Shown here piece after piece: positions 1,427-61,015 of a DNA stretch of 64,000 nucleotides. The position numbers and the translations under genes were made by a program. Source of the DNA: an uncultured bacterium (lineage in GTDB: Bacteria; Spirochaetota; UBA4802; JAGODF01); NCBI GenBank assembly GCA_937921485.1, contig CAKZSV010000012.1, positions 75,688-139,687 of the forward strand. Reading direction: 5' to 3'. Below the pieces are notes generated by a model, which worked only from the letters and a program-made list of their open reading frames with translations, was not told the origin of the DNA and did no database searches. Within the stretch, counting starts at the first letter, position 1, and each line of letters begins with the position of its first letter.

Positions 1427-2647
1427 TTAGATGAAAATCTGCGCCTGGATGGTAACCACGCGCTGATTGGGATACTCATCAAGATCGGTACCGCTTACAA
1501 CTTCTCCGAACGGCATCTGGTATTCAAGCTTGATGTTGGCATTGTGGCCGTTGATGAAATAGTTCAGGCCGAAGGTGAGATAGCTCACCGTCACATCGTC
1601 GTTACCAGCAGCTTCCTGGTATTTCCAGGACGCGAATTTAATGACAGGCTGCCATGTGCTGTTCAGGAGAAGGCCTGCCTGCGCAAAATAGCCGTATTCT
1701 TTTTCAGGCATGGTAAGACCGGGTATACCAAAAAGCGATAATGTTGTTCCCGGTCTATTCTTCACGTTCACGTATCCGGCCTGGAATGCCACCACCATAT
1801 CGGGAGAAACAGGATAATCGACGATCAGATCTACTGTCCAGGCAAGATAATCTTCCTGATTGCCGTCAACAATACGAGCATCCTTCATGTAATCGACACC
1901 CGCGCCGAAGGAAAGAATGGTTTTTTTGCCAAGATAATTGCCGCTGTAGAAGAAGCCTTCTTCGGCGTCTTTGAGGTTAATCTGCACGCGGCCGGTGACT
2001 CGAGGAAGACCGTTGTTGTTGATGTTGTCGCTGTCATCAGCTAGAGTTCCTGCACTTCTTTCGATTCCATCAAACAATCCAATGCGGTAATCGATCATCT
2101 TGTTGGCAAGAAGGCCGCGGAATTCCACGCCATAATCGCGCCATATCGTTGCTTCGGGTATATTAACCGCAGTGATGTTGTAGTTTACGCCAAGAAGCGA
2201 TGCCGCGGACTGCCGGTTATGGTGCATGAACGGAAGGAGAATCATGCCTGCGGCAATTTGCAGTTCATCAGCAACTTTGTAGTTGATGTACGCATCCTGT
2301 AAAAATGCAAAATGTCGTTCGCTCTGTGCTATGTTGCTAATGTCGACATTGTTTACAATATCCGTATCCACAAAGAACGTCACGTTGGGCGCAACCTGGC
2401 CGTTGAAAATCATGCGCATGCGCTTGGGTGCAAAATTGCTCGACCAGACCGCATCGCTGTCGGTTTCAACTTTGGTGTCCCATGTATACGTATTCGTATA
2501 CTGCATCTGAAACAACAGATGAAGGTCGATCCACCTGTCGGGACCATACGTGAGTTTTGCCACTCCCGCATCCTGTGCCTGGGCTGCCATCGGCATGCCG
2601 GCAAGTGCAGCTGCGAAGAGCGCTAAAAAGACAACTGCTTTCTTCAT
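1427..2647 (-). CDS. Outer-membrane porin (OprO/OprP phosphate-selective porin-like)
   Basis: Signal peptide MKKAVVFLALFAAALAG...AQA (start moved to the ATG at 2647), alternating beta-strand pattern, 'DAYINY', 'RDYGVE' and a C-terminal aromatic (QIFI). Confidence 0.75.
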   Translation of the reverse strand: MKKAVVFLALFAAALAGMPMAAQAQDAGVAKLTYGPDRWIDLHLLFQMQYTNTYTWDTKVETDSDAVWSSNFAPKRMRMIFNGQVAPNVTFFVDTDIVNNVDISNIAQSERHFAFLQDAYINYKVADELQIAAGMILLPFMHHNRQSAASLLGVNYNITAVNIPEATIWRDYGVEFRGLLANKMIDYRIGLFDGIERSAGTLADDSDNINNNGLPRVTGRVQINLKDAEEGFFYSGNYLGKKTILSFGAGVDYMKDARIVDGNQEDYLAWTVDLIVDYPVSPDMVVAFQAGYVNVKNRPGTTLSLFGIPGLTMPEKEYGYFAQAGLLLNSTWQPVIKFASWKYQEAAGNDDVTVSYLTFGLNYFINGHNANIKLEYQMPFGEVVSGTDLDEYPNQRVVTIQAQIFI

Positions 2648-2703
2648 GCTAAGCCTCCTGATTATATTTTTGCCAGAAATCGGCAATTACAAAAACGAGG
2701 ACA

Positions 2704-2732
2704 ATTATAATTTTATGTATATTTTCTGGCAA
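2704..2732 (-). promoter_or_regulatory. Sigma70-type promoter of the porin-cytochrome genes
   Basis: The minus strand reads TTGCCA-N17-TATAAT about 55 nt upstream of the porin ATG. Confidence 0.7.
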
Positions 2733-2733
2733 G

Positions 2734-2757
2734 AAAAAAAGGCCGCAGTGCGGCCTT
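2734..2757 (-). terminator. Intrinsic terminator
   Basis: Minus strand AAGGCCGC-act-GCGGCCTT followed by a T-tract, downstream of the small ORF at 2824..2997. Confidence 0.7.
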
Positions 2758-2823
2758 AACGTCAGAAGGCTTTTATGAAGAAGTATCCGGCGACATGTGC
2801 CCGCCGGTACGGTGCCATGCGTA

Positions 2824-2997
2824 TCAGTACAGAGCAGTAAGAAGTCTTCTTTCGAGTAAAACAAGTTTTATTAGCATTTTATAGATGATACGGTCAATGG
2901 AGCCCATGATTTTCTTTTCCGGCATGAATATCACAAAAAGCGCTTCGTTGATATTGCGCACAATCTGATATCCGGCTTCGCACATGCATTGGTGCAT
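2824..2997 (-). CDS. Small hypothetical protein (57 aa, below the ORF-track cutoff)
   Basis: AGGAG-N6-ATG, then MHQCMCEAGYQIVRNINEALFVIFMPEKKIMGSIDRIIYKMLIKLVLLERRLLTALY*, followed by a terminator. Confidence 0.5.
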   Translation of the reverse strand: MHQCMCEAGYQIVRNINEALFVIFMPEKKIMGSIDRIIYKMLIKLVLLERRLLTALY

Positions 2998-3175
2998 AAA
3001 AAACTCCTGAACTATTTATTTTATTCAATAATCAAATACGGTCTGGAAGTAAAAACATTATAAAAACGATATGAATTAAATATTAAAATTAGATTCTGCG
3101 CTGCCGCGATTTATTCTTTACAACGGCGGCGCGGGGACGGGATAATGGTGCCATCTTATGTCATGAGGTATTTGT

Positions 3176-4474
3176 ATGTTTATACAACGCTTGCGCGATC
3201 TCACTTCAAAGGAACTCGACGCGTTTTTCAATCGTTTTGGAGATGATTTTAGTGCAGTTCTTCTCAATACCGTCATTCCCATCGTGAACGACGTGCGAGA
3301 GAATGGCGATGCGGCGGTGAAGAAATATACGAAAAAATTCGATAGCGTCGATCTCCCATCTCTCATTGTATCTGACAGCGAATTTGAAGCTGCGGCGAGG
3401 TGCATTGACAGAGCCGTTTTTGATGCATTTTTAGAAGCAAAGAAAAATATTGAAGAATTTCATTCCCGCCAGCTTAAAAACATTCTCTCCTACACCAGAA
3501 GCGACGGAACTATGCTCGGCGTGTATCATCACCCCATTGAACGTGCGGCGGTCTATGTTCCCGGCGGTAAAGCAGCATATCCATCAACGGTGCTCATGGG
3601 TACGCTACCCGCAAAGATAGCCGGCGTGAAGGATATTTCCATCATCACCCCTCCCACCAAGGAGGGAGGCGTTCATCCGATGGTGCTTGCACTCTGCCGC
3701 GAACTCGGCGTCAGCCGTGTGGTGAAATCGGGCGGAGCGCAGGGAATCGCCGCCGCGGGATTCGGCACAGAAACAGTTGCGAAGGCAGACATCATAGTCG
3801 GTCCCGGCAATATCTATGTAACAGCGGCGAAGACCTATCTTTTCAGTTTGGGTGTGGTACAGATCGATTCGCCGGCCGGCCCGAGCGAAGTGCTTATCAT
3901 CGCCGATGAAAGCGCGAATCCCCGCTGGGTGGCATGGGATCTGCTCTCGCAGGCAGAGCATGAGGAGATGGCACTTTCGGTACTTGTAACCACTTCTGAG
4001 AAGCTGGCAAGTGAGGTGGCGTCGTATATACGCGAGGATCTGGAAAGCGGGCGGGGACGCAGCGAAATAAAGAAAAAATCCATAGAGCGCGGCTGTTCAA
4101 TTCTCATAGCGGATTCAATTGATGAAGCGATTGATTTTTCAAACCGGTATGGACCGGAGCACATGGAGATGATGGTTGAAAACGCAAGGGAATTCCTTCC
4201 CCGCATAAAAAACGTAGGATCGCTCTTTCTGGGACAGTATGCTCCCGTCGCGGTGGGAGATTATTTCTCCGGCACGAATCATATCCTTCCGACAGGAGGA
4301 ACCGCGCGCTTCACCTCTGGAGTTTCAGTGGATACCTTTCTGCGGCGGACTACCTTTCAAGAGCTTTCTTATGAGGCGCTCGCGAAAGCGCGGACATCGG
4401 TGGTCCTTATGTCGAAATCGGAGGGTTTCGGCGATAAACACGGCGGGTCGGTTGAAGTGAGGTTTGAAAAATAA
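3176..4474 (+). CDS. hisD: Histidinol dehydrogenase
   Basis: Motifs 'YVPGGKAAYPSTVLM', 'GPGNIYV', 'AGPSE', 'DLLSQAEH', 'PEH' and 'GDYFSGTNHILPTGG'. Confidence 0.97.
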   Translation: MFIQRLRDLTSKELDAFFNRFGDDFSAVLLNTVIPIVNDVRENGDAAVKKYTKKFDSVDLPSLIVSDSEFEAAARCIDRAVFDAFLEAKKNIEEFHSRQLKNILSYTRSDGTMLGVYHHPIERAAVYVPGGKAAYPSTVLMGTLPAKIAGVKDISIITPPTKEGGVHPMVLALCRELGVSRVVKSGGAQGIAAAGFGTETVAKADIIVGPGNIYVTAAKTYLFSLGVVQIDSPAGPSEVLIIADESANPRWVAWDLLSQAEHEEMALSVLVTTSEKLASEVASYIREDLESGRGRSEIKKKSIERGCSILIADSIDEAIDFSNRYGPEHMEMMVENAREFLPRIKNVGSLFLGQYAPVAVGDYFSGTNHILPTGGTARFTSGVSVDTFLRRTTFQELSYEALAKARTSVVLMSKSEGFGDKHGGSVEVRFEK

Positions 4475-10222: not shown

Positions 10223-10900
10223 ATGAAAGAATCAATAAAAGCGCTTGGGCAGTATCTCCCCGTGCAGAAATGCCTGAGCGGGGGAAATATTCGTGAATTG
10301 TCGGATCAGGAGCTATTGTCCGTGTTGCTTGGAACGGGAACAAAAGAGACCGACGTCATAGATCTTTCCGGGGAGCTAATCAGGAAATTCGGCGGTCTGC
10401 AGGGGCTGTGCCGCTCGGGACTTCGGGAAATTGCATCCAGCCGCGGAATCGGGATGGTGAAATCCGCGCGCATACTTGCAGCGTTTGAACTCGGCAGGAG
10501 AGCGCTTTCCCCCGGTCCGGTGCTTGAGCGGGCCGATTCTCCCGCCATGGTCTGGAAATATCTGCTTCCGGAGTTTATCGGGCTTGCGCGGGAGGAATTC
10601 AGGGTGCTGGTTCTGAATAATAAAAATCACGTGCTGAAAAAATGCGTGGTGTCAGTAGGTACAATATCAGAGGCGCTGGTGCATCCGAGGGAGGTATTCA
10701 GAGAAGCGATACGGGAAGCAGGAGCCTCAATCATCATAGCGCACAATCACCCATCGGGAGTGCTCACTCCTTCCCCGGAAGATGTGCAAACCACCAGGCG
10801 CATCAGGGAGGCAGGTGAAATCATCGGCATTGCACTGCTCGATCATGTTATTATGAGCGATACCGGTTATCTGAGCATGCGCGAGGAGGGTTTGCTGTGA
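10223..10900 (+). CDS. radC: RadC/UPF0758 JAB-domain protein
   Basis: AGGAGG RBS before the ATG at 10223; 'LSDQELL', 'VHPREVF', 'HNHPSG' and 'LLDHVI'. Confidence 0.92.
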   Translation: MKESIKALGQYLPVQKCLSGGNIRELSDQELLSVLLGTGTKETDVIDLSGELIRKFGGLQGLCRSGLREIASSRGIGMVKSARILAAFELGRRALSPGPVLERADSPAMVWKYLLPEFIGLAREEFRVLVLNNKNHVLKKCVVSVGTISEALVHPREVFREAIREAGASIIIAHNHPSGVLTPSPEDVQTTRRIREAGEIIGIALLDHVIMSDTGYLSMREEGLL

Positions 10901-10910
10901 TGAATGGCTT

Positions 10911-10944
10911 TGAAAAAAGAAACGGCGCGCTTTTACGCGCGCCG
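10911..10944 (-). terminator. Intrinsic terminator between convergent radC and SPOR genes
   Basis: 8-bp stem CGGCGCGC/GCGCGCCG, followed on the minus strand by TTTCTTTTTT. Confidence 0.65.
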
Positions 10945-10959
10945 AAGCAGGAGGTCGTA

Positions 10960-11814
10960 TTATTCACTGGTAATGTAACTGTGTTCGTAACGGTGCATTT
11001 CCTTTAATTCTTCGAGGATTTTAACGGCTTCTTTTCGATTGGAAATGGGGCCAATTTTTACCCGGAAAAAGTTTTTCCCGTTCAGCCTGGTGTTTTCTAT
11101 GAAAGGATCATACCTGTGCTCTTTAAGCCTGTTTACTTCCTGGAGCGCTTTTGCTCTGCTCGAATAGGCCGCCACCTGAACGGAAAAGCCTTCTCTCAAG
11201 GCGTCATCGTGCTGTGCTGTCTTGGAAGCGACTTCAACAGTTCTGTGCTGTTTCTTCTTTGATTCCCGGCTGCCGTTCTCACTGTTTTTCTTCCCGTGCG
11301 TGATGGCATTTGAAGATTTGCTTCGTTTTTCCGATGTGGACGTTTTGGATGGGGGAATGATTTCGTTGACGCTGTCCTGCGTGAGAAGGTCGCGTCCCTC
11401 TTTGTCGGATTTCTGTGCGACGGCCTTTCCTCCGGGCGCGGTATTGTCTTTCGGCGGTGCGGGTGTCACTGTACTGGAAGCCTTCTGATCGGTAGCTGCC
11501 GGCGTTGCGGTATGATCTAAGGTTTGTTTATCCATTGTTTCCTGCTCGGCGGTCCGTTCCGGTGCGTGCAACCCGGCGGAATCATGTGCCGGTTCATCAG
11601 GAAGCGGGGCAAAAAGCGCTTCGTTGCCGGCTGCAACGTGCCGTTCGGTCCTCTCCTCGCCGGAAAAATTCATTCCAATCAGAAAAGCAATTATAAGAAT
11701 TCCTACCAGCGCGCACGCGATGATGATGATTCTCGGCGTGTCAAGATGCAGCAAATACACGCTTTTTTCTCTGGTGCGGTTTGTGTGCATATCGTCGAAA
11801 TGTTCCATTGCCAT
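10960..11814 (-). CDS. SPOR-domain cell-division protein (FtsN/DedD-like)
   Basis: Single TM, low-complexity linker and C-terminal 'FSVQVAAY...A...L...FRVKIGP'; start probably at 11814. Confidence 0.85.
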   Translation of the reverse strand: MAMEHFDDMHTNRTREKSVYLLHLDTPRIIIIACALVGILIIAFLIGMNFSGEERTERHVAAGNEALFAPLPDEPAHDSAGLHAPERTAEQETMDKQTLDHTATPAATDQKASSTVTPAPPKDNTAPGGKAVAQKSDKEGRDLLTQDSVNEIIPPSKTSTSEKRSKSSNAITHGKKNSENGSRESKKKQHRTVEVASKTAQHDDALREGFSVQVAAYSSRAKALQEVNRLKEHRYDPFIENTRLNGKNFFRVKIGPISNRKEAVKILEELKEMHRYEHSYITSE

Positions 11815-15656: not shown

Positions 15657-16763
15657 TCAATTTGGCGTTACCGTAAAATCGCGATAACGATGATTCAAGA
15701 CTAAAAGCATTATTGACGCAGCAATGAGGATTACCGCGCCGGCTGGAACAATGTAATGAATCTTCCCCGTGAGGCAGATTGCAAAAAAAGCCAGCGAAAA
15801 AAATTCTTTTTTTGTGTAATATTTTAATTTATGTATAAAAGATACAAGCCCGTCAGTGTCTGGAAGCCTCTGCAAAAACTCCTTATCGTAAGTCACCAGC
15901 GAACCCGAAGTTGTATGTTTTCTGAGAAAAGAAATCATTGCGGCAAGCATGATGAAAAGCCCGGCAAAAAGCAGGGCAATGGCAGCCAGAGGCAGGTATA
16001 CGGTGGTGCTGTTCAGAAAAAAAAGATATGAGGAGGCGGTGAGAAATAGTATTAGCGTGCCGTTGTCGCTGATGGTGTCGAGCCAGCCGCCAAGCTTTGA
16101 AACTTTTAAGGTGAGCTTCGCCACTTCGCCGTCAACTCCATCAAAAACCGACGCGAGCTGAAAGCATAGCCCCCCGATGACAATACTGGCGTAGGTGTTG
16201 AGTGAGAGGAAAACAGCGCTCGAAAATCCCACAATCATATTTAACACCGTGAGCACATTCGGATGAATGCGCGTTCTGGAAAGCGCCCTGCTTATGGGAA
16301 GCGAAATGGCCTTGTTGATGTTGCGCGCAATGAACCCCGGCGTGTTGTTTCGGATTGTCTGAATTAAAATCTCTTCAGCCCGCAGTGCGTCTGAAGTAGA
16401 AGCAATATCGAAAATATCGGTGCCGTATGCAATCAGCCAGGCGTTCTTCTTCCGGGTGAAATAGGCGTCCGCCTGCGAGAGGTGATGTGCCTGCAGGAAA
16501 CAATTGGCAGAAAGATAAATTGCCTGTGTTGTTTCTGGCGGGGGAATAAGTGCTTCTTTCACCGCAAGAGAAATGCGCTTGAGGTGTTTCTTAATATTGT
16601 TTCTGTAGAATTCGATTTCCGGTTCTTTAAGGTGCAGATATATCATCTTAATGCCGGCACGATGCAATAATATGATATTGCGTTCGAGTGCATAGAGCCC
16701 GCAGATTTTAATATCCAGACTGCCTTTTTCCGGAGAGTGCAGTACTGCGATGTCGGGAAGCAT
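15657..16763 (-). CDS. CDP-alcohol phosphatidyltransferase with a degenerate N-terminal nucleotidyltransferase-like domain
   Basis: Signature 'DGVDGEVAK...SKLGGWLDTISD', 'HPNVLT' and several TMs. The N-terminus 'KICGLYALERNI' resembles an NTP-transferase remnant. Confidence 0.85.
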   Translation of the reverse strand: MLPDIAVLHSPEKGSLDIKICGLYALERNIILLHRAGIKMIYLHLKEPEIEFYRNNIKKHLKRISLAVKEALIPPPETTQAIYLSANCFLQAHHLSQADAYFTRKKNAWLIAYGTDIFDIASTSDALRAEEILIQTIRNNTPGFIARNINKAISLPISRALSRTRIHPNVLTVLNMIVGFSSAVFLSLNTYASIVIGGLCFQLASVFDGVDGEVAKLTLKVSKLGGWLDTISDNGTLILFLTASSYLFFLNSTTVYLPLAAIALLFAGLFIMLAAMISFLRKHTTSGSLVTYDKEFLQRLPDTDGLVSFIHKLKYYTKKEFFSLAFFAICLTGKIHYIVPAGAVILIAASIMLLVLNHRYRDFTVTPN

Positions 16764-16925
16764 AGAATACCTTCTCTAACCGAAGCTTGGGTACATCAAA
16801 CCTTAGGGTCAAGGATAATAAAATATCGAAAATGTTCAAGATAAATTTATTACAGGAATATGAACGTAAGTGCAAATAGTTCTTGAAAGTTAACCTGCCC
16901 GATGTAAGTATATAGCTTTTACAGT

Positions 16926-17189
16926 ATGGAATGCCGAATCGACATAACCGTCACGCCGAAATCATCTAAAAGCGCGATAGTCTGCGATGAGAACGCCGTC
17001 AAAGTGTATCTGCATTCACCACCTTCGGACGGCAAAGCAAATGAGGAATGCATCGAACTATTCGCAAAGCGTTTGAAAATCCCAAAATCTTTGATTGCGA
17101 TTGATAAAGGGCTGAAAGGCAGAAAGAAAACATTGCGTGTACAGGGACTTTCCCGAGAAGAAGCGATGAAGAGGTTGATTGAAAAATGA
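16926..17189 (+). CDS. DUF167/UPF0235 (YggU-like) protein
   Basis: 'VTPKS', 'PPSDGKANEE' and 'GLKGRKK'. Confidence 0.88.
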   Translation: MECRIDITVTPKSSKSAIVCDENAVKVYLHSPPSDGKANEECIELFAKRLKIPKSLIAIDKGLKGRKKTLRVQGLSREEAMKRLIEK

Positions 17190-17524
17190 ATAGTACGCGT
17201 ATAATTGCCATGATGATGGTGCTTTGCTTTTTTGGCTGTGCCGGTACATTTACCGCGAAAGAACGCTTCGAAGGCGTGAAAGACGGGGTGGTGAGAATTT
17301 ATATACGATGTAGCAACGACTCCGGCTATGATGAGAGCGATAGAGAGCTGAATAAAGAAATACTAAAGCGCGGCGAAGAAAGGCTGAAATTGCTCGCGGC
17401 TCAGGGTATTATTGAAAAAAAATTTGCTGAAAAAGCCGCTGCTTCGCCTATTCACATCCGCTGCTTCGATGAATATTGCGAAGGATTTATCGATTATAAA
17501 ATTAGAATCGAGGAGAAAAAATGA
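17186..17524 (+). CDS. Hypothetical lipoprotein
   Basis: Lipobox 'FFGC'; 4-nt overlaps with both neighbours. Confidence 0.65.
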   Translation: MNSTRIIAMMMVLCFFGCAGTFTAKERFEGVKDGVVRIYIRCSNDSGYDESDRELNKEILKRGEERLKLLAAQGIIEKKFAEKAAASPIHIRCFDEYCEGFIDYKIRIEEKK

Positions 17525-18789
17525 AACTCCTTTCTAAGATTGCCATACGAATCAAACGCGGCTATCTCCCTCATTTCATCAATGAATTATGCAAATCGGG
17601 CTGTGCGCTCAAATCGCTCGAGTCGCTCGAGATTCTGCCCGAAGGGGAGAGATTCAGCGCGGAAGTGCTCTATGATGCTGCGGAGCAATTCAGAACGGTG
17701 ATACAGAAATTCAAAAGGCATCCGGAAAATTTTTCCGTTGAATCGGTGGCGAATCTCCTTGAAAATTTTCTTCACGGTGGGATGCTTGATGTACTGGGGA
17801 AGGGTAAATTTGAAACGAAAGCGGATTATGAAATGATGGTGCAGGGCGGAGCCGGCATGATTATCGATAAAATCCGCTCGGGGGAAAACGTTGAGGATTT
17901 TTCCGGGATGTTTTTCAATGTGGCTATGATTAACTGCATGCGCGTGAAGTCCGAGAAGCCCGATATCAACAAATTCATCTTTCACACCAGCGCCGAGAGA
18001 GATTCCGTCGTGCTGAAAAAATGTACGGGCTGCAATGGCTTTCCCCTTCTCGTGCGTGCTGACCATCCAGAAGATATAATTAAAGTTTTGAAAAGCATTG
18101 AAGAGAGCTTCACCCTCATACGAATGATGGAAATTGAAGGCGTTGCCGATGCATCGCTGGTTTCCTACATCAATTCAGAGATTGAACGGCCGCTGCTCTT
18201 TCGGGACTACGATGAGTTGCCGCTATTGATGATGTACGCGGTCATGAAAATTTCGCAGAAAAAAAGAATCGCGTATGATGACTGCAATGCCGGTATGATA
18301 GGCCTTGATTTGCCCGCGATTCGCCTGACGCGCCTTTTAAAGTCGCTTGGATTTGCGCGGGTTTTAGGCTGCGACAATAATGAAAAATCCATGATGAACG
18401 TAGAAAAGGAGGGAGCGCTTGCCACAACGCAGGAGAATATTTTCAGCAACAGCGATGTCATTTTCCTTTTTAAAAATCATTTCACTGTGGCAGACCTTTC
18501 GAAAGTCCGCCCCGGCCAGGTAATCGTCTCGCTGCTCGATGATGAGGAAGTAGATAGAGAAATTATTGCGAACAGGGGAGTGAAAGATTACATACCGGCA
18601 GAGTATCTGGACCTTTCAATCGTCTTTCCGGGCATGGTTGCCGGCATGAAAAAAGGGTCTATTCATCATCTAGAAGATCAACACCTGATTCAAGCAGCAA
18701 AGGCGATGGCAGAGATGAAAATCGATTCGCTTTTTCCCGACATCTTCGGCGATGTGCATGCGGTAATCGAAAAATCACTCATGGAATGA
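17521..18789 (+). CDS. Malic-enzyme-fold protein with an N-terminal ACT-like domain; catalytic motifs degenerate
   Basis: Colinear with ACT-MaeA type enzymes, but the YTPGV, EGKA, LEDI, HDDQHG and GAGAAG motifs are replaced. Confidence 0.6.
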   Translation: MKLLSKIAIRIKRGYLPHFINELCKSGCALKSLESLEILPEGERFSAEVLYDAAEQFRTVIQKFKRHPENFSVESVANLLENFLHGGMLDVLGKGKFETKADYEMMVQGGAGMIIDKIRSGENVEDFSGMFFNVAMINCMRVKSEKPDINKFIFHTSAERDSVVLKKCTGCNGFPLLVRADHPEDIIKVLKSIEESFTLIRMMEIEGVADASLVSYINSEIERPLLFRDYDELPLLMMYAVMKISQKKRIAYDDCNAGMIGLDLPAIRLTRLLKSLGFARVLGCDNNEKSMMNVEKEGALATTQENIFSNSDVIFLFKNHFTVADLSKVRPGQVIVSLLDDEEVDREIIANRGVKDYIPAEYLDLSIVFPGMVAGMKKGSIHHLEDQHLIQAAKAMAEMKIDSLFPDIFGDVHAVIEKSLME

Positions 18790-18850
18790 ATCCATCTTGC
18801 TTTTTCGCGCAATGCAGGGTGAATACGTGAGCGAAAAGACCGGCGGAAAA

Positions 18851-19777
18851 TTAGACGTACACCAGTTCGACGGGTATCCCCATTTCAACAATCATGTTTC
18901 CATCGCAGTCGAAGAGTTCGCCGTCCATGGTATATCTGAATGGAGCATCAGCTTCGATTGAAAGCTTCGATATGAGGCCATTGAAATTGTATTGCCCTTT
19001 CATGGGGAGGCCTTTTTTTATTCTGAAAAACTGCTTCACGCCTTCGATGGGTTTTTCGCCGGTGATGATTATGTGGAAGGTGCCTTCCTTTTCATTGGCG
19101 CGCGGAAGAGGGGAAAACCCCATGCCAATGTGCTCGACGGTGCCCGCTAAAATCGCCATAATTTCTCTGAAAGGTAGTTCTTTCCCGTCGGCAACAACGC
19201 GGGCATTCACGCGCTTAAAGAGGGATGAGCCTTTTTTGTCGGTGAGACCTTCGTAAATAGCGCGGGCAATGACTTTGAGGTTTTTTATCGTGCCTTTTTC
19301 GCCTTCATATACCGCGTCTAAAAAATTTGTTGTAAGCCCAAGGCCGAAGAGAAAACAGTAACGATTACCGATTTTCATGGTATCGCGCCGGTGTGTTTCA
19401 AAATCCTTCCCCGATTCGAGCGCAGCGACCATCCTGCGTAGAATATCGGGTCCCTTGCCCTTGAGATTGATGGTGCGGGCGATGTTGTCCATTGTTCCGC
19501 CTTTGAGAATCAAAAGCGGGGGCGGGGCGGAAGGCGCGTACATGTTTATCATGTGAGAGACAATATGATGGATGGTGCCATCGCCTCCGCAGGTGGCAAT
19601 GCACGAGATGCCGTTTTTTTTAAAATCAAGAAGTATCCGGTCGAGCTCATCGAGGGAAGTGCTCAATCGGACATCCACGTATTCCCCGCCGATCTGCCGC
19701 AGGAGGTCGGGAATATCTTTTTTGCTTTTTTTTACGCTGCGCGCATGGGGATTTACAATAATGCCAATTGTGTGCAC
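18851..19777 (-). CDS. Diacylglycerol/lipid kinase family protein (DAGK-cat)
   Basis: 'IIVNP', 'CGGDGTIH', 'GGTMDNIA' and 'MDGEL'. Confidence 0.9.
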   Translation of the reverse strand: MHTIGIIVNPHARSVKKSKKDIPDLLRQIGGEYVDVRLSTSLDELDRILLDFKKNGISCIATCGGDGTIHHIVSHMINMYAPSAPPPLLILKGGTMDNIARTINLKGKGPDILRRMVAALESGKDFETHRRDTMKIGNRYCFLFGLGLTTNFLDAVYEGEKGTIKNLKVIARAIYEGLTDKKGSSLFKRVNARVVADGKELPFREIMAILAGTVEHIGMGFSPLPRANEKEGTFHIIITGEKPIEGVKQFFRIKKGLPMKGQYNFNGLISKLSIEADAPFRYTMDGELFDCDGNMIVEMGIPVELVYV

Positions 19778-50876: not shown

Positions 50877-51401
50877 TCAGTATTTTGCGTTGGCGTATTC
50901 AACCCATCCGCCGGCTTCCACAAGCGCGCGATCGAATGCGGTAAGCTCGAAGGGTATATTCTCGACATTGCGACCGCTTGAGATTATGATGGCATGATGA
51001 GCCAGATCCACTTCGATTTCCGCATCACCGGTATTATATTTTTCAAAAAGATGGTTAATGATTTTTTCAGGAAGCTCAATTGCCATCATCCCGCAGTTAA
51101 ACATGTTCTGACGGAAGATGCGCGCAAAGCTCGGCGCGATGACTGCGTTGATGCCATTGACCTCTAAAGCCCAGGGAGCGTGTTCACGAGATGAGCCGCA
51201 GCCGAAGTTGGCGCGCGTCACGATAATGGATTTGCCCGCAATATCGGTTTTTGGGTTGAATCCTTCCAGTTTTAAATCTTCAAGCAGATATGGCTTCAGC
51301 GCTTCTTTGCTTAGTTCCGTGAGATATTTTGCCGGAATGATTTCGTCGGTGTTGATATCGCTTCGATCTAAGAAAAGCACTTTGCCTTTGAAATTTTTCA
51401 T
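50877..51401 (-). CDS. leuD: 3-isopropylmalate dehydratase small subunit
   Basis: 'DINTDEIIPA', 'NFGCGSSREHAP' and 'SFARIFRQN'. Confidence 0.88.
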   Translation of the reverse strand: MKNFKGKVLFLDRSDINTDEIIPAKYLTELSKEALKPYLLEDLKLEGFNPKTDIAGKSIIVTRANFGCGSSREHAPWALEVNGINAVIAPSFARIFRQNMFNCGMMAIELPEKIINHLFEKYNTGDAEIEVDLAHHAIIISSGRNVENIPFELTAFDRALVEAGGWVEYANAKY

Positions 51402-51405
51402 TTGA

Positions 51406-52692
51406 TCATCCCTTAAAAAGCTCTGAATTCGTTACATATCCCGCAATGGCGCTTGCCGCAGCTGTGGCAGGGCTTACCAGGTGCACCATGCCGCCTTTTC
51501 CCATGCGTCCATTAAAATTGCGGTTGGTCGTTGCCGCACAAACCTCGCCTGGCGCAAGCACCCCATTTGACATGCCAAGGCATGCTCCGCAGGTGGGGTT
51601 GGTGACGCAAAAACCCGCGTCCATGAAAATCTGTATAATGCCTTCTTCAAGCGCTTTTTTATACACCTCAGGGGTTGCGGGAGAAACAATCCCGCGCACG
51701 CTGTCGCTGATGCGCTTCCCTTTGAGCACCTGCGCGGCAATGCGGAGGTCTTCGATGCGGCCGTTGGTACAGGAGCCGATGTACACCTGATCGATTTTCG
51801 TGCCTTCCATCTCGCGCACCGGCTTAATCTGGTCGGGTTTATAGCCGAAAGTGGCAAGGGGCTCAAGAGCGCTCACGTCGTGTTCAATGACTTCATCAAA
51901 ATGTGCATCTGGATCGGAGCGCCATCGGGCATAATTTTTACATGCTTCATCCTTTGAAGCAAATTCGTTTTTGATGAATGGCCACAGGTATTCCACGGTG
52001 GTCATATCGGGGGCGATGACGCCTGAGGTGGCCCCCGCTTCAACAGCCATGTTCGAAAGCGTCATGCGCGATTCCATCGACATCTGTTCGATGAGTTCAC
52101 CGGAAAATTCAATCACCCTGTCGGTGGCACCGTTTACTCCAATTTGCCCGATGACTGATAAAATGACATCTTTCGCAAAGACGCCCGGCTTTAAGTTGCC
52201 TTTAATTATGATGTGCATCGACTTTGGTTCTTTGAAAGCGCACACGCCTTTTAAAATTCCCACCTCCAAATCGGTGGTTCCCACTCCTGCTGCAAACGCG
52301 CCGAATGCGCCATGCGTGCAGGTATGCGAATCGCCCATGATGATGACGTAGCCAGGGCGCACAAAACCCTTTTCGGGAAAGATCGCATGGCAGACGCCGT
52401 TTCTGCCAATGTCGAAGAAGTCTTTGATATTGTGGCGGCGCGCCCACTCGCGCAGGATTTTCCCCTGCTCGGCTGTTTTGCTGTCCTTTGCCGGCGTGAC
52501 GTGATCGATGACTGCCTTGATCTTCGAAGAATCGAACACGCGGTCCATTCCCCGTGCCACAAGGTCGTTTATGGCAACCGGGGTGGTGATTTCGTGGCAG
52601 AACACCATGTCCAGCTTCAGGACATAGATGCCTTTATCGGGTGTGTCGATGAGATGGCTTTCGAATATTTTCTCAACAAGTGTTTTTCCCAT
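51406..52692 (-). CDS. leuC: 3-isopropylmalate dehydratase large subunit (short, homoaconitase-like type)
   Basis: 'HEIT', 'IDH', 'GDSHTCT', 'IGSCTNGR', 'PTCGAC' and 'TTNRNFNGRMG'. Confidence 0.88.
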   Translation of the reverse strand: MGKTLVEKIFESHLIDTPDKGIYVLKLDMVFCHEITTPVAINDLVARGMDRVFDSSKIKAVIDHVTPAKDSKTAEQGKILREWARRHNIKDFFDIGRNGVCHAIFPEKGFVRPGYVIIMGDSHTCTHGAFGAFAAGVGTTDLEVGILKGVCAFKEPKSMHIIIKGNLKPGVFAKDVILSVIGQIGVNGATDRVIEFSGELIEQMSMESRMTLSNMAVEAGATSGVIAPDMTTVEYLWPFIKNEFASKDEACKNYARWRSDPDAHFDEVIEHDVSALEPLATFGYKPDQIKPVREMEGTKIDQVYIGSCTNGRIEDLRIAAQVLKGKRISDSVRGIVSPATPEVYKKALEEGIIQIFMDAGFCVTNPTCGACLGMSNGVLAPGEVCAATTNRNFNGRMGKGGMVHLVSPATAAASAIAGYVTNSELFKG

Positions 52693-52799
52693 TATATACT
52701 CCTTTACGTATTAAAAAAAATTTACGGCGGTGGATACTCCAAATCGCTCAAAAAATTTTTCAAGCTGTATTGCGAATCACATGGGGTGTGTCGGCAATA

Positions 52800-52939
52800 A
52801 AATATACGCTGTCGCCAGAATTAGAAATGAACAATTGCAGTCCTTTTTTTCGCAGTTTATGTAAAAATCTTTTATTTGAGATGCTTGTTTATGATCATTA
52901 TTAAAAAAATCGTACCAAAATATTTGTATCAAGGCCGAT
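52800..52939 (-). pseudogene. Relic PIN-domain (VapC) N-terminus with a +1 frameshift in a T7 tract
   Basis: 'IGLDTNILVRFF', then after the shift 'NNDHKQASQIKDFYINCEKKDCNCSF'. Confidence 0.55.
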
Positions 52940-53014
52940 CGAAAGTAAGGAATTATGTTCAAAAATCAAGTATTTTTTATACAAAGCCTTTACATGGTTG
53001 AATTGAAAGTTCAT

Positions 53015-53131
53015 CTATCCGCACACGCGGTTTTTCCCTGCTTTCTTTGCCGCATAGAGCATTTTGTCGGCCTGGGCGATGAGCGTGCGCGGATTTCCTC
53101 TCGTGGAAGGAATCGCGGTTGCGACGCCTGC
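53015..53131 (-). pseudogene. Relic GGDEF-domain C-terminus
   Basis: 'AGVATAIPSTRGNPRTLIAQADKMLYAAKKAGKNRVCG*' begins 1 nt after the aconitase stop. Confidence 0.72.
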
Positions 53132-53132
53132 A

Positions 53133-55064
53133 TCAGAACCTCTTTTTTGTATAATTCAAAAGCCCGCCTTCAAGCAGAATTTCCCTCTGGCGCGCAGTTG
53201 CAAATAGAGTGAATAAGATTTTTTTACCGCCTATGATGGCTTCGATGTGTTCGCCATTTCGGGCAACCTGATTCCGCGCATTGGCTATCTCGAATGCATC
53301 GCCCTGTTGAATGTGATTGTAGTCATCGGGATTCATGAAGACCAGCGGCAGGATTCCGAAATTCACCAGATTCGCCGAATGGATGCGCTCGAAGGATTTT
53401 GCCATCACCGCGCGCACGCCCAGATACATGGGACAGATTGCCGCATGCTCTCTGCTTGATCCCTGTCCGTAGCTTTCACCTGCGACGATGGCAGTGAACA
53501 CGCCCATTTTTTTGTTTTCAAGCGCGCGCGATGAAAATGTTTCATCAACGCTTTCAAAGACATAACGCGCATACGCGGGAATATTCGAGCGGTATTTCAG
53601 CCGTGAACCTGCGGGCATGATGTGGTCGGTGGTGATTTTATCCCCGACTTTGAGGCCGACGATTCCCTTAAGATTCTCTGCCATCGGCTCGGTGTAGGGC
53701 GGCTCGCCGATGTTGGGGCCGCGAACGATTTCTGTCTTTTCAAATTGCGGGGGAAGTATCATTGAGTCGTCGATGAGAAATGTCGCCGGTTGAGGAATGC
53801 GTGGATATTCATCTGCGGGATAATCAAGCGGGTTGACCAGCTTCCCTTCAAGCACAGAAAGCGCTGCTGTTTCCGGGCTTACCAGATATATGCCGGCATC
53901 TCTGGTACCGCTCCTGCCTTCGAAATTTCTGTTGTTGGTGCGAAGTGATACTCCCTTGCTTTTCGGCGCAAATCCTGAGCCGATGCAGAATCCGCAGGCC
54001 GATTCTAAGACGCGTGCTCCCGCGGCAATCAAATCGGCAAGTGCGCCATTTTCCGCAATCATTTCGAAGACCTGCCGCGAACCCGGCGCAATGCCAAGGC
54101 TGACCGAAGGGGCAATCTTTTTGCCTTTGAGAATTGCCGCTACGGTCATAAGATCGCGGTAGGATGAATTGGTGCAGCTTCCAATCGCCACCTGGTCGAT
54201 CAGTATTCCTTTTAGCTCTGATACCTTTTTCACATTATCGGGCGAGTGGGGAAGAGCAGCCATGGGAACCACCGATGAGAGGTCAATTTCGATTGTCCGC
54301 GCGTACCCGGGGGATGCATCAGGCAGAATTTCTTTCCATACTTGTTCGCGACCCTGTGCTTTTAAAAATGCACGCGTCACCTCATCGCTCGGAAAAATTG
54401 AGGTGGTCACCCCGAGTTCGGCGCCCATATTGGTGATGGTGGCGCGCTCCGGCACTGAAAGCGTTTGTACGCCATCGCCTGCATATTCAATTGCGGTGCC
54501 GACATTTCCTTTTGTGGTGAGAATTGATAGCACCGTAAGAATGACATCCTTGGCCGATACCCATGGCCGCAGTGCGCCGCGAAGAAGTACGCGCACCACT
54601 TTCGGACAGGTGAGGTAGAACGGCCCGCCGCCCATTGCCACTGCCACATCGAGGCCGCCTGCGCCGATGGCAATCATGCCCATACCCCCCGCGGTGGGGG
54701 TGTGGCTGTCGGAACCGAGGAGCGTGGCGCCAGGCCGCGCAAATCGTTCAAGGTGCACCTGATGGCAGATGCCGTTTCCCGCTTTTGAGTGGTATATGCC
54801 GTAGCGGCTGTTGACTGTCTGCAAATAGATATGGTCGTCGGCGTTTTCAAATCCCATCTGGAGGGTGTTGTGGTCCACGTACGAAACCGAAAGTTCCGTG
54901 CGCACGCGCGGTATGCCGAGCGCTTCGAATTGTAAATACGCCATGGTCCCGGTTGCATCCTGCGTGAGCGTCTGGTCGATGCGAATGCCGATTTCTTTTC
55001 CGGGAGTGAGTTCTCCTTCAAGGAGGTGGTCTTTGAGAATTTTATAAATGACTGTTCCTTTCAT
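53133..55064 (-). CDS. Aconitate hydratase (short ~640-aa putative type)
   Basis: 'TQDATGT', 'DHN', 'GSDSHT', 'IGSCTNSS', 'CGFCIG', 'ITTDHI' and 'QGSSREHAA'. Confidence 0.9.
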   Translation of the reverse strand: MKGTVIYKILKDHLLEGELTPGKEIGIRIDQTLTQDATGTMAYLQFEALGIPRVRTELSVSYVDHNTLQMGFENADDHIYLQTVNSRYGIYHSKAGNGICHQVHLERFARPGATLLGSDSHTPTAGGMGMIAIGAGGLDVAVAMGGGPFYLTCPKVVRVLLRGALRPWVSAKDVILTVLSILTTKGNVGTAIEYAGDGVQTLSVPERATITNMGAELGVTTSIFPSDEVTRAFLKAQGREQVWKEILPDASPGYARTIEIDLSSVVPMAALPHSPDNVKKVSELKGILIDQVAIGSCTNSSYRDLMTVAAILKGKKIAPSVSLGIAPGSRQVFEMIAENGALADLIAAGARVLESACGFCIGSGFAPKSKGVSLRTNNRNFEGRSGTRDAGIYLVSPETAALSVLEGKLVNPLDYPADEYPRIPQPATFLIDDSMILPPQFEKTEIVRGPNIGEPPYTEPMAENLKGIVGLKVGDKITTDHIMPAGSRLKYRSNIPAYARYVFESVDETFSSRALENKKMGVFTAIVAGESYGQGSSREHAAICPMYLGVRAVMAKSFERIHSANLVNFGILPLVFMNPDDYNHIQQGDAFEIANARNQVARNGEHIEAIIGGKKILFTLFATARQREILLEGGLLNYTKKRF

Positions 55065-55285
55065 CCACTGCTCCATTGCATTAATGTTTGAGGAACAGCT
55101 ACAATGGCAATGTGAAAAGTGATGTCAATCACAAATTAGCGATATGGCAGTGTCGCTTCGATGAGAGTTTTTATCGGGTAATGGCCAGCCGGTGAGCGAC
55201 ATAACACGATGCAATGCGAAAAAGCATTATGATAAACGAACGCAAGATTAATGCATTTTTTGAATTTGACAATTACTAAGTTTCC

Positions 55286-58200
55286 GTGGTTTCTAAAAAT
55301 ATCATGTCCACTAGTAAACAAATAATACCTGGCGGCGCGTTTTTGTTCATCAGTGCATTGATAACGCTTATTGAATTATCCGGCCAGGAGGAAGGATTTC
55401 ATCGAAGCCTCATTGACTTCATTGAAATACATGCGCAAAAAGCCGAAACGCGCGTTGAAGGTAAGGAAAGCGATGTACTGCAAGATGAGGATTCTCACGC
55501 CATCCGCTATCAAAAAGGCGATTGGGTCAAGTATGTGGTCTCAAAGCAGTATGTGCCGCGCGGCGAAGTCGAAGAGAAGCTCGTCAGTATTGATGCGGGC
55601 GATGATTCGAACATCGTTTCCTATGGCTCATTGAAGATGAATTTGATATATGGAAAGTCGCATTTCACCAGCGGTAAATACAAGCGCTTCGATGAAGACA
55701 AACCTGTATCGAAAATCATTCAGTCCGGGTTTTATCCCGAACGTGAGCTTCAGCTCCACATTGAAGGTTCGGTGGGCAAACGCCTGAAGCTGTATGTCGA
55801 CCATGACAGCAATAAGGCGGATAACCGATATGTGATGAAATACACCGCCGAGGAAGATGATGAAGCGATACGGGAAATTAACGCCGGCGAGGTTGACATC
55901 AAGATGAATAACTCCAGGTGTGTCGTCTTCGACGATACTTCCCGCAAGGGCCTCGGGATTGATATGACTTTGAAGAAAAACCGCTTGCGCGTAAAGGCGT
56001 TCGGCACCGTGAGCAAGGGCGAGGCAGTGGTGGAACGTTTCCGGGGCAACTCCTCGGGAAAGACTGTGGAGCTTCGGGAATATCAGTACGTGCGCGGAAA
56101 ATATTATCAGATTGAACCTTTCAAGCGATATGATAATCTTTCAACGAAACCTGCGGGTGCATCATCATACAATCTCATCACCTTCACCTCGCAGCCGCCT
56201 GACCCGAAGAATTACGCGCCGTACGCGGTACATGTCGATGCCGCGTCTTTTGAACTGTACATGGATGACCAGAATCCGCATAATAATTATAACGCAATGA
56301 CGCTTTCTGTTGACGGCGGCAGGTATGTCCGCCTTTCAAGAGGCACGGACTACACGATCAATTATGCGACGGGGCTCATAACTTTTACAAATCCCGTTTC
56401 TGAAAACGCTCGCATCTTTGCAGTGTACACGCTAAATGGTGGAAGCACTCTTTCCTCCGATCCCGCTTCGAGATTGGACGTGTTCCCAGGAAAAATTTTT
56501 GTGTTTATCAAATACGGCTCATCCATTGACGAGGACACGAATAAAAATTTTGTCCTGGATGCCGGCGAAGACCGAAACGGCGACGGCGTGCTCAATGTGG
56601 ATGTGTACGAGGTTCGTTCGGTGTATTCCCTTGGCGATCGAAATATTCAGGACGACAATTTCAGAATTGATTTTCTCCTTGAACAGAGCCAGCTTTCGAG
56701 GGCTGAGATTGAAAAAGCAGGCCGCTATGCGCTCAACCCGTCCGGGGGAATTGTCGCCTTTCATCTTCGCGAGCCTTTCAGGCCTCTTCTCGGCAGCGAC
56801 GCGTCAAAAGTGTATCGCGAAAACCAGGGTTCTTCAGCAGTCCAGCAGTCCCGATACCGCCTTCGCATGAATTACTTCCGGGAGGCGCGAAGCTTTCAAC
56901 TTTCAAATACAAACATTATACCAGGAAGCGTGCGCGTGCGCGTGAATGGACGCGAAATTCCTCAGTCCCTTTATTCGGTGGATCATACGTCCGGATTTTT
57001 TGAGTTTATCAATCCCGCCAACCCGCTCATCGGTCCGGAAACGGACATCGAAATTCGGTATGAGTATTTGCCCGCAGGAGGCGATGTGCAATCATTCCTT
57101 GCGGGAGTGCGAGCAGATTACGATCTCGGGAGAAATATCGACATTGGCGGCACCGTGATATTTTCCCGCGGAGCGGGGGGAGGCAGCATCCCGAAGGTGG
57201 GAAGCGAACCAGAACAGCTTTTAGTGTTTGAGGGAGACGCGAAGCTGTATCTCAGCCAGAAAAAGCTCGAAGATTTCATCAATTCCCTTCCCGGAGGTAA
57301 TATAAAATCCGTGCCGTTTGAAGTGACGGCATACGCGGAGTATGCGAAAAGCTATAAAAATGTAAATACGTTCGGCAAGGCGCTCATCGATGACATGGAA
57401 GGGGGGGATGAGGTGATCGGAATTTCGCTTTCCGAACGCGACTGGATTCTCTCATCGCCGCCTTCCGCGCTTGTGTCCGACAGCTTCCCCGCGCTTACTC
57501 AGGCAAACCGCGGTGTGCTTCGCTACCTGTACTACCGAAGCCCTGACAGCTCGGAAACGCTCAGAACGCCGGCGTTTGCGCCCTATACAATCGACTATTC
57601 AGTAAAGCCCGGGCCGTATAATGTTGCCGCGGGGCATCTTGCATCGAATGTCATGGAGGAAAGCCATCAGAAATCCCTTGTGCTCGATTTTGATTTTACA
57701 GGCGGCAAACGCCATGCTTCTGTGGTGACACGAAGGCTTTCAAGTCAGGCGGTGGATTTTTCTTCGCTGCAGTATCTTGAAATATGGTATCGGTCAACCG
57801 GCGGAAGCGGAACCGCGCATATCTATTTCGATATCGGCACCATCAGTGAGGATTCCGACGGAGACGGCGTGCTCGATACCGAGGATGTGAACAACAATGG
57901 ATTTCTCGATTCCGATCCATCGGCAGATATCTTCGAAGATATCGGCTATATCTTTAATCCCGCCGGCGGCACTGCCACCAAAGTCGGCTCAGGTCCGCAG
58001 CTTTCACATTTCACCCGAGGGGACGGCACGCTCACCAGCGAAGATCTCAACGGCAATGGCACGCTTGAAACAGTCGAGAGAATCATCAGGCTTCCCGGGG
58101 ATATTACCACGCCCTACAGCTCTGCTGCCCCGCTGAGTGTCGATATGGCCGATACGACGTGGCGCAGAGCGCGGATTTATATCAACAGAAGTTCGGCTGC

Positions 58201-61015: not shown

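Follow-up and report, generated by a model that had tools for sequence, protein, structure and literature searches.

The window analysed here is a 64,000-nucleotide stretch from a metagenome-assembled genome (MAG) of an uncultured bacterium of the Spirochaetota, and it carries a giant gene whose product resembles SprA of Flavobacterium johnsoniae and Sov of Porphyromonas gingivalis, the outer-membrane (OM) translocon of the T9SS (type IX secretion system). This gene is a single uninterrupted open reading frame (ORF) of 1909 codons, counted from a GTG (Table 1). A database copy of the protein (P0002) is 100% identical over 1903 aa and begins six residues later at ATG 55304, which from the sequence is likely the true start. 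A preliminary description of the window had reported a 1909-aa ORF with motifs in the order known from SprA and a terminal F, and the translation bears out each of these. LHIEGSVGKRLKLYVDHDS lies at residues 156–174, IREINAGEV at residues 195–203 and GTDYTINYATGLITF at residues 353–367, and the acidic motifs EDRNGDGVLN, EDSDGDGVLD, EDVNNNGFLD and EDLNGNGTLE are found at residues 428–437, 855–875 and 919–928. The protein ends in YEVGLNFTLLF, a β-signal-like terminus that closes with Phe.

Table 1. Features of the giant SprA-like gene and its product, with positions in the 64,000-nucleotide window
Feature	Position	Strand	Basis
SprA-like giant protein, predicted to be an OM protein, whole ORF	55286..61015	+	Translation; identity to P0002
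Probable Sec signal peptide, MSTSKQ-IIPGGAFLFISALITLI-ELSGQ, without lipobox Cys	55304..55390	+	By eye from the translation; cleavage site inferred
N-terminal SprA-homologous block, residues ~100–290, 8–9 predicted strands	55583..56155	+	TIGR04189, hhalign, SprA profile alignment, DSSP, pLDDT
Best conserved SprA core, residues ~350–750, with GTDYTINY..GLITF	56330..57538	+	TIGR04189, hhalign, SprA profile; pLDDT 70–90
IDDMEG, residues 701–706, aligning to A(Y)IDDFDG/VDDFEG in the SprA family	57386..57403	+	Translation, hhalign, profile alignment to SprA
Jelly-roll domain 1, residues ~795–1040, containing inserted acidic loops of DxDxDG type	57668..58405	+	DSSP; local Foldseek CBM/CIA30 matches; TIGR04189 stretch 57692–57880
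Putative Ca2+-binding loops (EDSDGDGVLDTEDVNNNGFLDSD ... GDGTLTSEDLNGNGTLE), many columns invariant across the family	57836..58075	+	Calcium binding inferred from motif type
Jelly-roll domain 2, residues ~1076–1199	58511..58882	+	DSSP; local Foldseek CBM matches
C-terminal barrel region, residues ~1208–1909, ~25 strands, mostly of 11–25 residues	58907..61012	+	AlphaFold2 model, Foldseek

The giant protein is matched by the NCBIfam SprA/Sov model TIGR04189 with an E-value of 7.5e-43 (146.1 bits), in five collinear stretches that span model positions ~129–958 of 2319. The strongest of these lies within the SprA core and pairs residues 516–751 with model positions 575–811. Another stretch falls in the N-terminal block at 55724–56155, where the hhalign match described below starts at residue 139 and the SprA profile alignment at 128. 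Direct searches of the PDB sequences, using either the giant protein (phmmer) or a profile of its 28-member family (hmmsearch), returned nothing, which first seemed to be evidence against homology. This was resolved by bridging through intermediates that bear SprA_N. The most distant homologues from a search of 5.8 billion proteins (P0109–P0115) are giants of like length (1700–2100 aa) from Elusimicrobiota and other MAGs outside the Fibrobacteres–Chlorobi–Bacteroidetes (FCB) group, and they retain a recognisable Pfam SprA_N domain (confirmed by Pfam for P0109), which the giant-protein family does not. One of them, P0115, matches F. johnsoniae SprA (6H3I) directly with an E-value of 1e-20. Using hhalign, the family alignment was matched to the SprA_N-bearing intermediates with a probability of 100 and an E-value of 2.5e-74 over 1026 columns, residues 139–1252 of the giant protein being aligned with residues 197–1410 of the intermediates; the profile of the intermediates in turn matches SprA 6H3I/6H3J at 3e-95. 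A merged profile with the giant protein as its first row aligned to SprA 6H3I_A with an E-value of 8.2e-80 in one collinear stretch, in which profile positions 93–1355 (~1,260 positions) fall onto SprA 128–1743. In terms of the giant protein itself, collinear homology to this part of SprA covers residues ~100–1380.

The motifs listed above sit column for column on their equivalents in the SprA family, both in the hhalign alignment and in the alignment with 6H3I, so their resemblance is not a matter of chance. As the alignments are long-range and collinear, the likeness to SprA is also not one of generic repeats, the outcome that the preliminary description had named as speaking against its proposal; the Foldseek results described below contradict it as well. 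Mean column identity within the giant-protein family is 52–58%. Matches of residues 348–580 to phage-tail models (DUF2460, the TIGR02217 distal tail protein and tail-tube) were all far under their cut-offs and were treated as β-sandwich noise, since they lie inside the SprA-collinear core. A precomputed Pfam column lists PF27067.1 for P0023, P0057, P0067 and others of the relatives; our own Pfam scan of P0023 gave no match.

The fold was predicted with AlphaFold2 as two overlapping parts (residues 36–1200 and 710–1909), each on a 33-sequence alignment taken from the relatives' loci. Residues 710–1909 were modelled with a mean predicted local distance difference test (pLDDT) score of 85.6 and comprise two jelly rolls followed by ~25 strands across residues 1208–1907 (DSSP). 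The top four PDB matches of this part in Foldseek are all SprA chains, namely 8GL6_A (3.3e-24), 8GL8_A, 6H3J_A and 6H3I_A (~4e-19 for the fourth), and the next best is a TonB-dependent transporter at 7.9e-6. Residues 36–1200 reached a mean pLDDT of 68.8, and again the top three matches are SprA (3.7e-37, 9.7e-37 and 2.0e-33), followed by a match at 8.4e-7. The Foldseek comparison proposed in the preliminary description therefore leaves SprA chains as the only strong matches of both halves. The low-confidence segments of the N-terminal part (residues 47–244 and 597–696) are rich in strands and plausibly need as partners the C-terminal strands absent from that model. We explain the low confidence in the N-terminal block likewise, by partner strands missing from the modelled fragment, and the strands of this block (residues ~100–290) probably contribute to the barrel.

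The SprA barrel has 36 strands (PMC10994853). Counted by DSSP in two open fragments, the ~25 C-terminal and ~12–13 low-confidence N-terminal strands of the giant protein give a total compatible with that number; closure, cap and lateral opening are putative. Strand amphipathicity judged from the alignment was uninformative, since strand length far exceeds membrane thickness. Local Foldseek matches of the two jelly rolls are to the carbohydrate-binding modules (CBM) CBM11, CBM30 and CBM61 and to NDUFAF1/CIA30. The preliminary description had proposed CBM/CIA30-like inserts; the likeness is real, but the jelly rolls lie inside the stretch that is collinear with the intermediates and SprA, and are thus inherited rather than inserted in this lineage. 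Like SprA (6H3I, 6H3J, 8GL6 and 8GL8), the giant protein appears to be a single-chain giant OM β protein that carries a signal peptide and ends in an aromatic residue, and it shares with SprA the motifs IDDxEG and GxDYxINxxxGxIxF and the acidic DxDxDG-type loops. It is ~500 residues shorter (1903 versus 2403). Taken together, homology and predicted fold make it very likely that the giant protein belongs to the SprA superfamily, and they support its description as a divergent, shortened SprA/Sov homologue outside the Bacteroidota.

The named relatives are all annotated as "hypothetical protein" and come from MAGs of Spirochaetota, Spirochaetes or Leptospirales, in agreement with the earlier assignment of the DNA to a probable spirochaete. 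SprA-like relatives occur in 133 of 401 sampled Spirochaetota genomes. Of 80 genomes from the uncultured order to which the source genome belongs, 76 carry the gene, one in each (split over contigs in fragmented MAGs), and the copies are 36–94% identical to the giant protein and ~1860–1970 aa long where no contig end cuts them. Matches in many other families have 1,750–2,300 aa and are ~30% identical over residues ~320–1290. The carriers include Thermospira (Brevinematales), among them the cultured T. aquatica. Some of the distant relatives match TIGR04189 (3.6e-51 at locus L056 and 5.7e-21 at L059) and others do not.

T9SS components were searched for in 31 genomes, the source genome (84.7% complete) and 30 relatives, with 24 genomes at least 90% complete. 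The T9SS C-terminal domain (CTD) model TIGR04183 scored over its cut-off in 14 of these, and its matches include small ORFs of ~120–145 aa in many relatives; the source genome had no match at E ≤ 1e-3. There, a CTD-only gene on contig C76 (9946..10326) encodes 126 aa with a signal peptide and one CTD/FlgD-Ig-like domain, the consensus of such proteins being AYPVPFNP...IFDINGD...WNGRN..G..V.PG.YIIK...K.IRILV. The gene directly after it (10323..11333) encodes a 336-aa barrel with the N-terminal signature of PorV/PorQ (..YIAMG.A..VV.DD.FAIYWNPAGL), which matches NF052325 "PorV2" at 7e-12 and NF033709 at 3e-6, both sub-cut-off. Members of the PorV/PorQ family are 14-strand FadL-like barrels. The pair is flanked by dxs-tlyA and folP-cdaA, and in 18 of the 20 loci inspected the PorV/Q-like barrel has the CTD-only gene directly upstream. 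The barrel itself occurs in 76 of 80 genomes from the order, and the nearest outgroup families have it too. Outside the order, 18 of 33 PorV/Q-family matches lie in genomes positive for the SprA-like protein, compared with 57 in 321 as background (Fisher p 3.5e-7, a value that ignores shared ancestry). The arrangement resembles the PorQ-PorZ and PorV-PorU attachment pairs of P. gingivalis in that a barrel stands beside a protein resembling the CTDs of PorU and PorZ; it differs from them in that a passenger domain is wholly lacking in the CTD protein and no sortase was found.

An HMM built from the CTD-only proteins detected two more CTD-like proteins in the source genome, both of them conserved, making three in all. 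The first is an 820-aa fn3 protein (contig C7, ~1733..4195, + strand) with the CTD-like domain at its extreme C-terminus and orthologues of ~790–880 aa in most relatives; by its sequence it is a candidate cargo. The second, of 878 aa (contig C21, ~16513..19146, + strand), is a fusion in which the CTD-like domain occurs together with FlgD-Ig repeats, an OmpA domain and, N-terminally, an NPA-motif barrel. Pfam sees FlgD_ig, Por_Secre_tail or CHU_C weakly in the CTD-like proteins. Genomes G016 and G022, from the same order and another family, encode several proteins of ~680–980 aa whose type A CTD matches score well above the TIGR04183 cut-off (E ~1e-12). Some of these lie on short contigs, so either genuine additional cargo or contamination could account for them.

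Based on the homology and the conserved gene pair, we read the giant protein as a SprA-type export pore that works without a motor, serves few CTD-tagged cargoes and acts with a PorV/Q-like barrel; we put the probability of this reading at roughly 0.55. The closed barrel, the pore function and the identities of cargo and carrier are what we infer here. The protein would be a Sec-exported giant OM β-barrel of roughly 36 strands, its wall made of N-terminal strands (residues ~100–290 and ~590–655) and the ~25 C-terminal strands (residues 1208–1907), and the conserved soluble core, the two jelly rolls and the acidic Ca-type loops would form a non-membrane cap. Through this pore, a very small conserved set of proteins ending in a FlgD-Ig/T9SS-CTD-like domain would be exported, with the 126-aa CTD-only protein and the 820-aa fn3 protein as cargo candidates. 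The carrier or anchor would be the PorV/PorQ-family barrel whose gene directly follows that of the CTD-only protein. The GldLM motor, GldKN ring, PorU sortase and canonical PorV would play no part in export. With none of these at work, cargo release would be passive or driven by some other source.

Several results weigh against this reading. A canonical T9SS needs energy driven by the proton-motive force (PMF), and no motor was found: among the 31 genomes, the motor models TIGR03513/TIGR03517 gave no GldL and no real GldM match, the sole GldM match (in G016) being a methyl-accepting chemotaxis protein. FlgD-Ig-type domains are not secretion signals by themselves, and the CTD and PorV/Q assignments in the source genome are all under curated cut-offs. 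Thermospira has the giant protein and no PorV/Q-like match at the thresholds used. No T9SS-like gene is linked to the giant gene, from which the CTD/PorV-Q-like pair is likewise unlinked. As for the giant protein itself, in the SprA HMM searches suggested in the preliminary description the match to TIGR04189 falls short of the curated cut-off of 200 bits, and a Pfam scan gave no SprA_N (PF14349) match at E ≤ 1. Past residue ~1380, over the last ~530 residues of the protein, the C-terminal barrel shows no match to SprA at the sequence level. When 1.84 billion representatives were searched with a profile of the C-terminal 1200 residues, only 677 clusters were reached (E ≤ 1e-3), and ~40 of these match across the whole barrel; the barrel sequence is therefore specific to this clade. 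TM-scores to SprA are low (0.35–0.40), which we attribute to the half-barrels having been modelled open.

The remaining component searches, over the same genomes, were also negative. Nothing scored over the cut-off of the GldK model TIGR03525; the matches below it are paralogues with an FGE-sulfatase domain, and Bacillus and Caulobacter controls match too. PorV (NF033710) was not found in the source genome and gave only weak sub-threshold matches in relatives. These are paralogous barrels of ~400–446 aa, and a Bacteroides thetaiotaomicron control was also weak and sub-cut-off, so the matches do not speak for PorV. The peptidase body of PorU (NF033707) was not found, matches being limited to CTD positions ~960–1094, apart from a partial match to the peptidase body in relative G026. 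Judged by these profile searches, GldK, GldL, GldM, canonical PorV and the PorU peptidase are absent; GldN, Plug, PPI, SkpA and SprE/PorW were not searched for. Since the giant protein scores below the curated equivalog cut-off and the T9SS partners tested for are missing, we do not file it as SprA/Sov or as a T9SS part. The preliminary description had called it a divergent giant translocon in another phylum: profiles and fold uphold an SprA homologue in another phylum, while the translocon role is deduced and the tested T9SS partners were not found. As a separate observation, the source genome encodes ~10 paralogues with an FGE-sulfatase (SUMF1-type) domain matching GldK in its C-terminal half, for example at C73 49045–49521, C7 192134–192628, C7 148947–149447 and C10 15019–15522, and up to 27 such matches occur in relatives.

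The same absences could mean that the SprA-fold barrel has another job, as a glycan- or calcium-binding scaffold, a polymer channel or an envelope-biogenesis factor, its likeness to SprA being one of ancestry only. Besides the lack of a motor, GldK, sortase and true PorV, this explanation draws on the two CBM-like jelly rolls with the conserved acidic loops, on the unlinked CTD/PorV-Q pair, and on a core distribution like that of a housekeeping gene, the source genome having one to three CTD-like proteins where a canonical T9SS has tens to hundreds. It also draws on the M23 peptidoglycan peptidase gene that, in 24 of 32 loci, each belonging to one of the order's other families, is the next gene upstream and shares the strand of the giant gene (for example L007 8858..9856, PF01551 7.6e-32, with 23 further loci, L031–L053). 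We consider another job, the main alternative, less likely, as the SprA-collinear region contains both the jelly rolls and the acidic loops, which are hence no new functional module, no polysaccharide-export or uptake genes are linked, and across the phylum the giant protein occurs together with PorV/Q-family barrels and CTD-like proteins.

An ordinary, complete T9SS whose parts were missed through MAG incompleteness or divergence past the reach of the HMMs is improbable. The completeness of the source genome leaves some room for it, as do the type A CTD matches over cut-off in G016 and G022 and the many paralogues resembling the C-terminal half of GldK. Yet 30 of the 31 genomes lack GldL and 30 lack GldM, with 24 of the genomes at least 90% complete, and the lone GldM match is a chemotaxis receptor; the GldK matches stay sub-cut-off and are shared with the Bacillus and Caulobacter controls, the PorU matches are confined to the CTD, and PorV proper is weak and missing from the source genome. 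We find an artefact of generic β-rich repeats and acidic loops, unrelated to SprA, scarcely credible: empty PDB searches and a Pfam result limited to sub-threshold DUF2460 would fit it, but collinear profile alignments over 1000–1260 positions (E 1e-74 to 1e-80) do not, nor do two separately modelled halves that both pick SprA as their sole strong match, with a gap of 13–30 orders of magnitude to whatever follows.

In the literature the T9SS, and SprA/Sov above all, is taken to be restricted to the Bacteroidota or, at the widest, to the FCB group (PMC4793230, PMC10994853 and PMC12398890). Our full-text literature search found no report of an SprA relative in spirochaetes, and the only spirochaete mention it returned was a PorV/PorQ-family annotation in Brachyspira (bioRxiv 10.1101/2025.01.03.631275). 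A conserved single-copy SprA homologue without a PMF motor is present in about one third of sampled Spirochaetota, which raises the question of how cargo would be released through an SprA-type pore without GldLM. Such genomes would offer a natural minimal system for telling the role of the barrel from that of the motor, and the cultured carrier Thermospira aquatica could make it testable. The reading would also assign a function to a large set of "hypothetical proteins" of 1,800–2,300 residues. We raise, as a tentative and wider proposal, that SprA-type barrels could be an older, self-sufficient device for OM export and no invention of the Bacteroidota or FCB group tied to GldKLMN. In this spirochaete order, what is left would then be a minimal three-part core (SprA-like pore, PorV/Q-like barrel and CTD-only adaptor) that places just one or two conserved surface proteins and either runs without external energy or has a motor that has escaped recognition.

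In the window, the giant gene stands between two housekeeping genes, one of the aconitase family, divergently upstream, and guaB (IMPDH) downstream, an order conserved only within the family. Three overlapping genes at 44199..48096 (− strand) are kept beside the giant gene only within the genus. They encode a 340-aa exported protein with a lamin-tail-like start and two barrel-like proteins, one of 441 aa that HhH matches weakly (PF12836, 1.1e-4) and one of 522 aa, and none of them has a CTD or PorV match in Pfam, NCBIfam or the CTD HMM. At 50877..55076 (− strand), two aconitase-family systems adjoin each other, a fused 647-aa protein and a split pair of large and small subunits (428 and 174 aa), which is ~33% identical to the fused protein.

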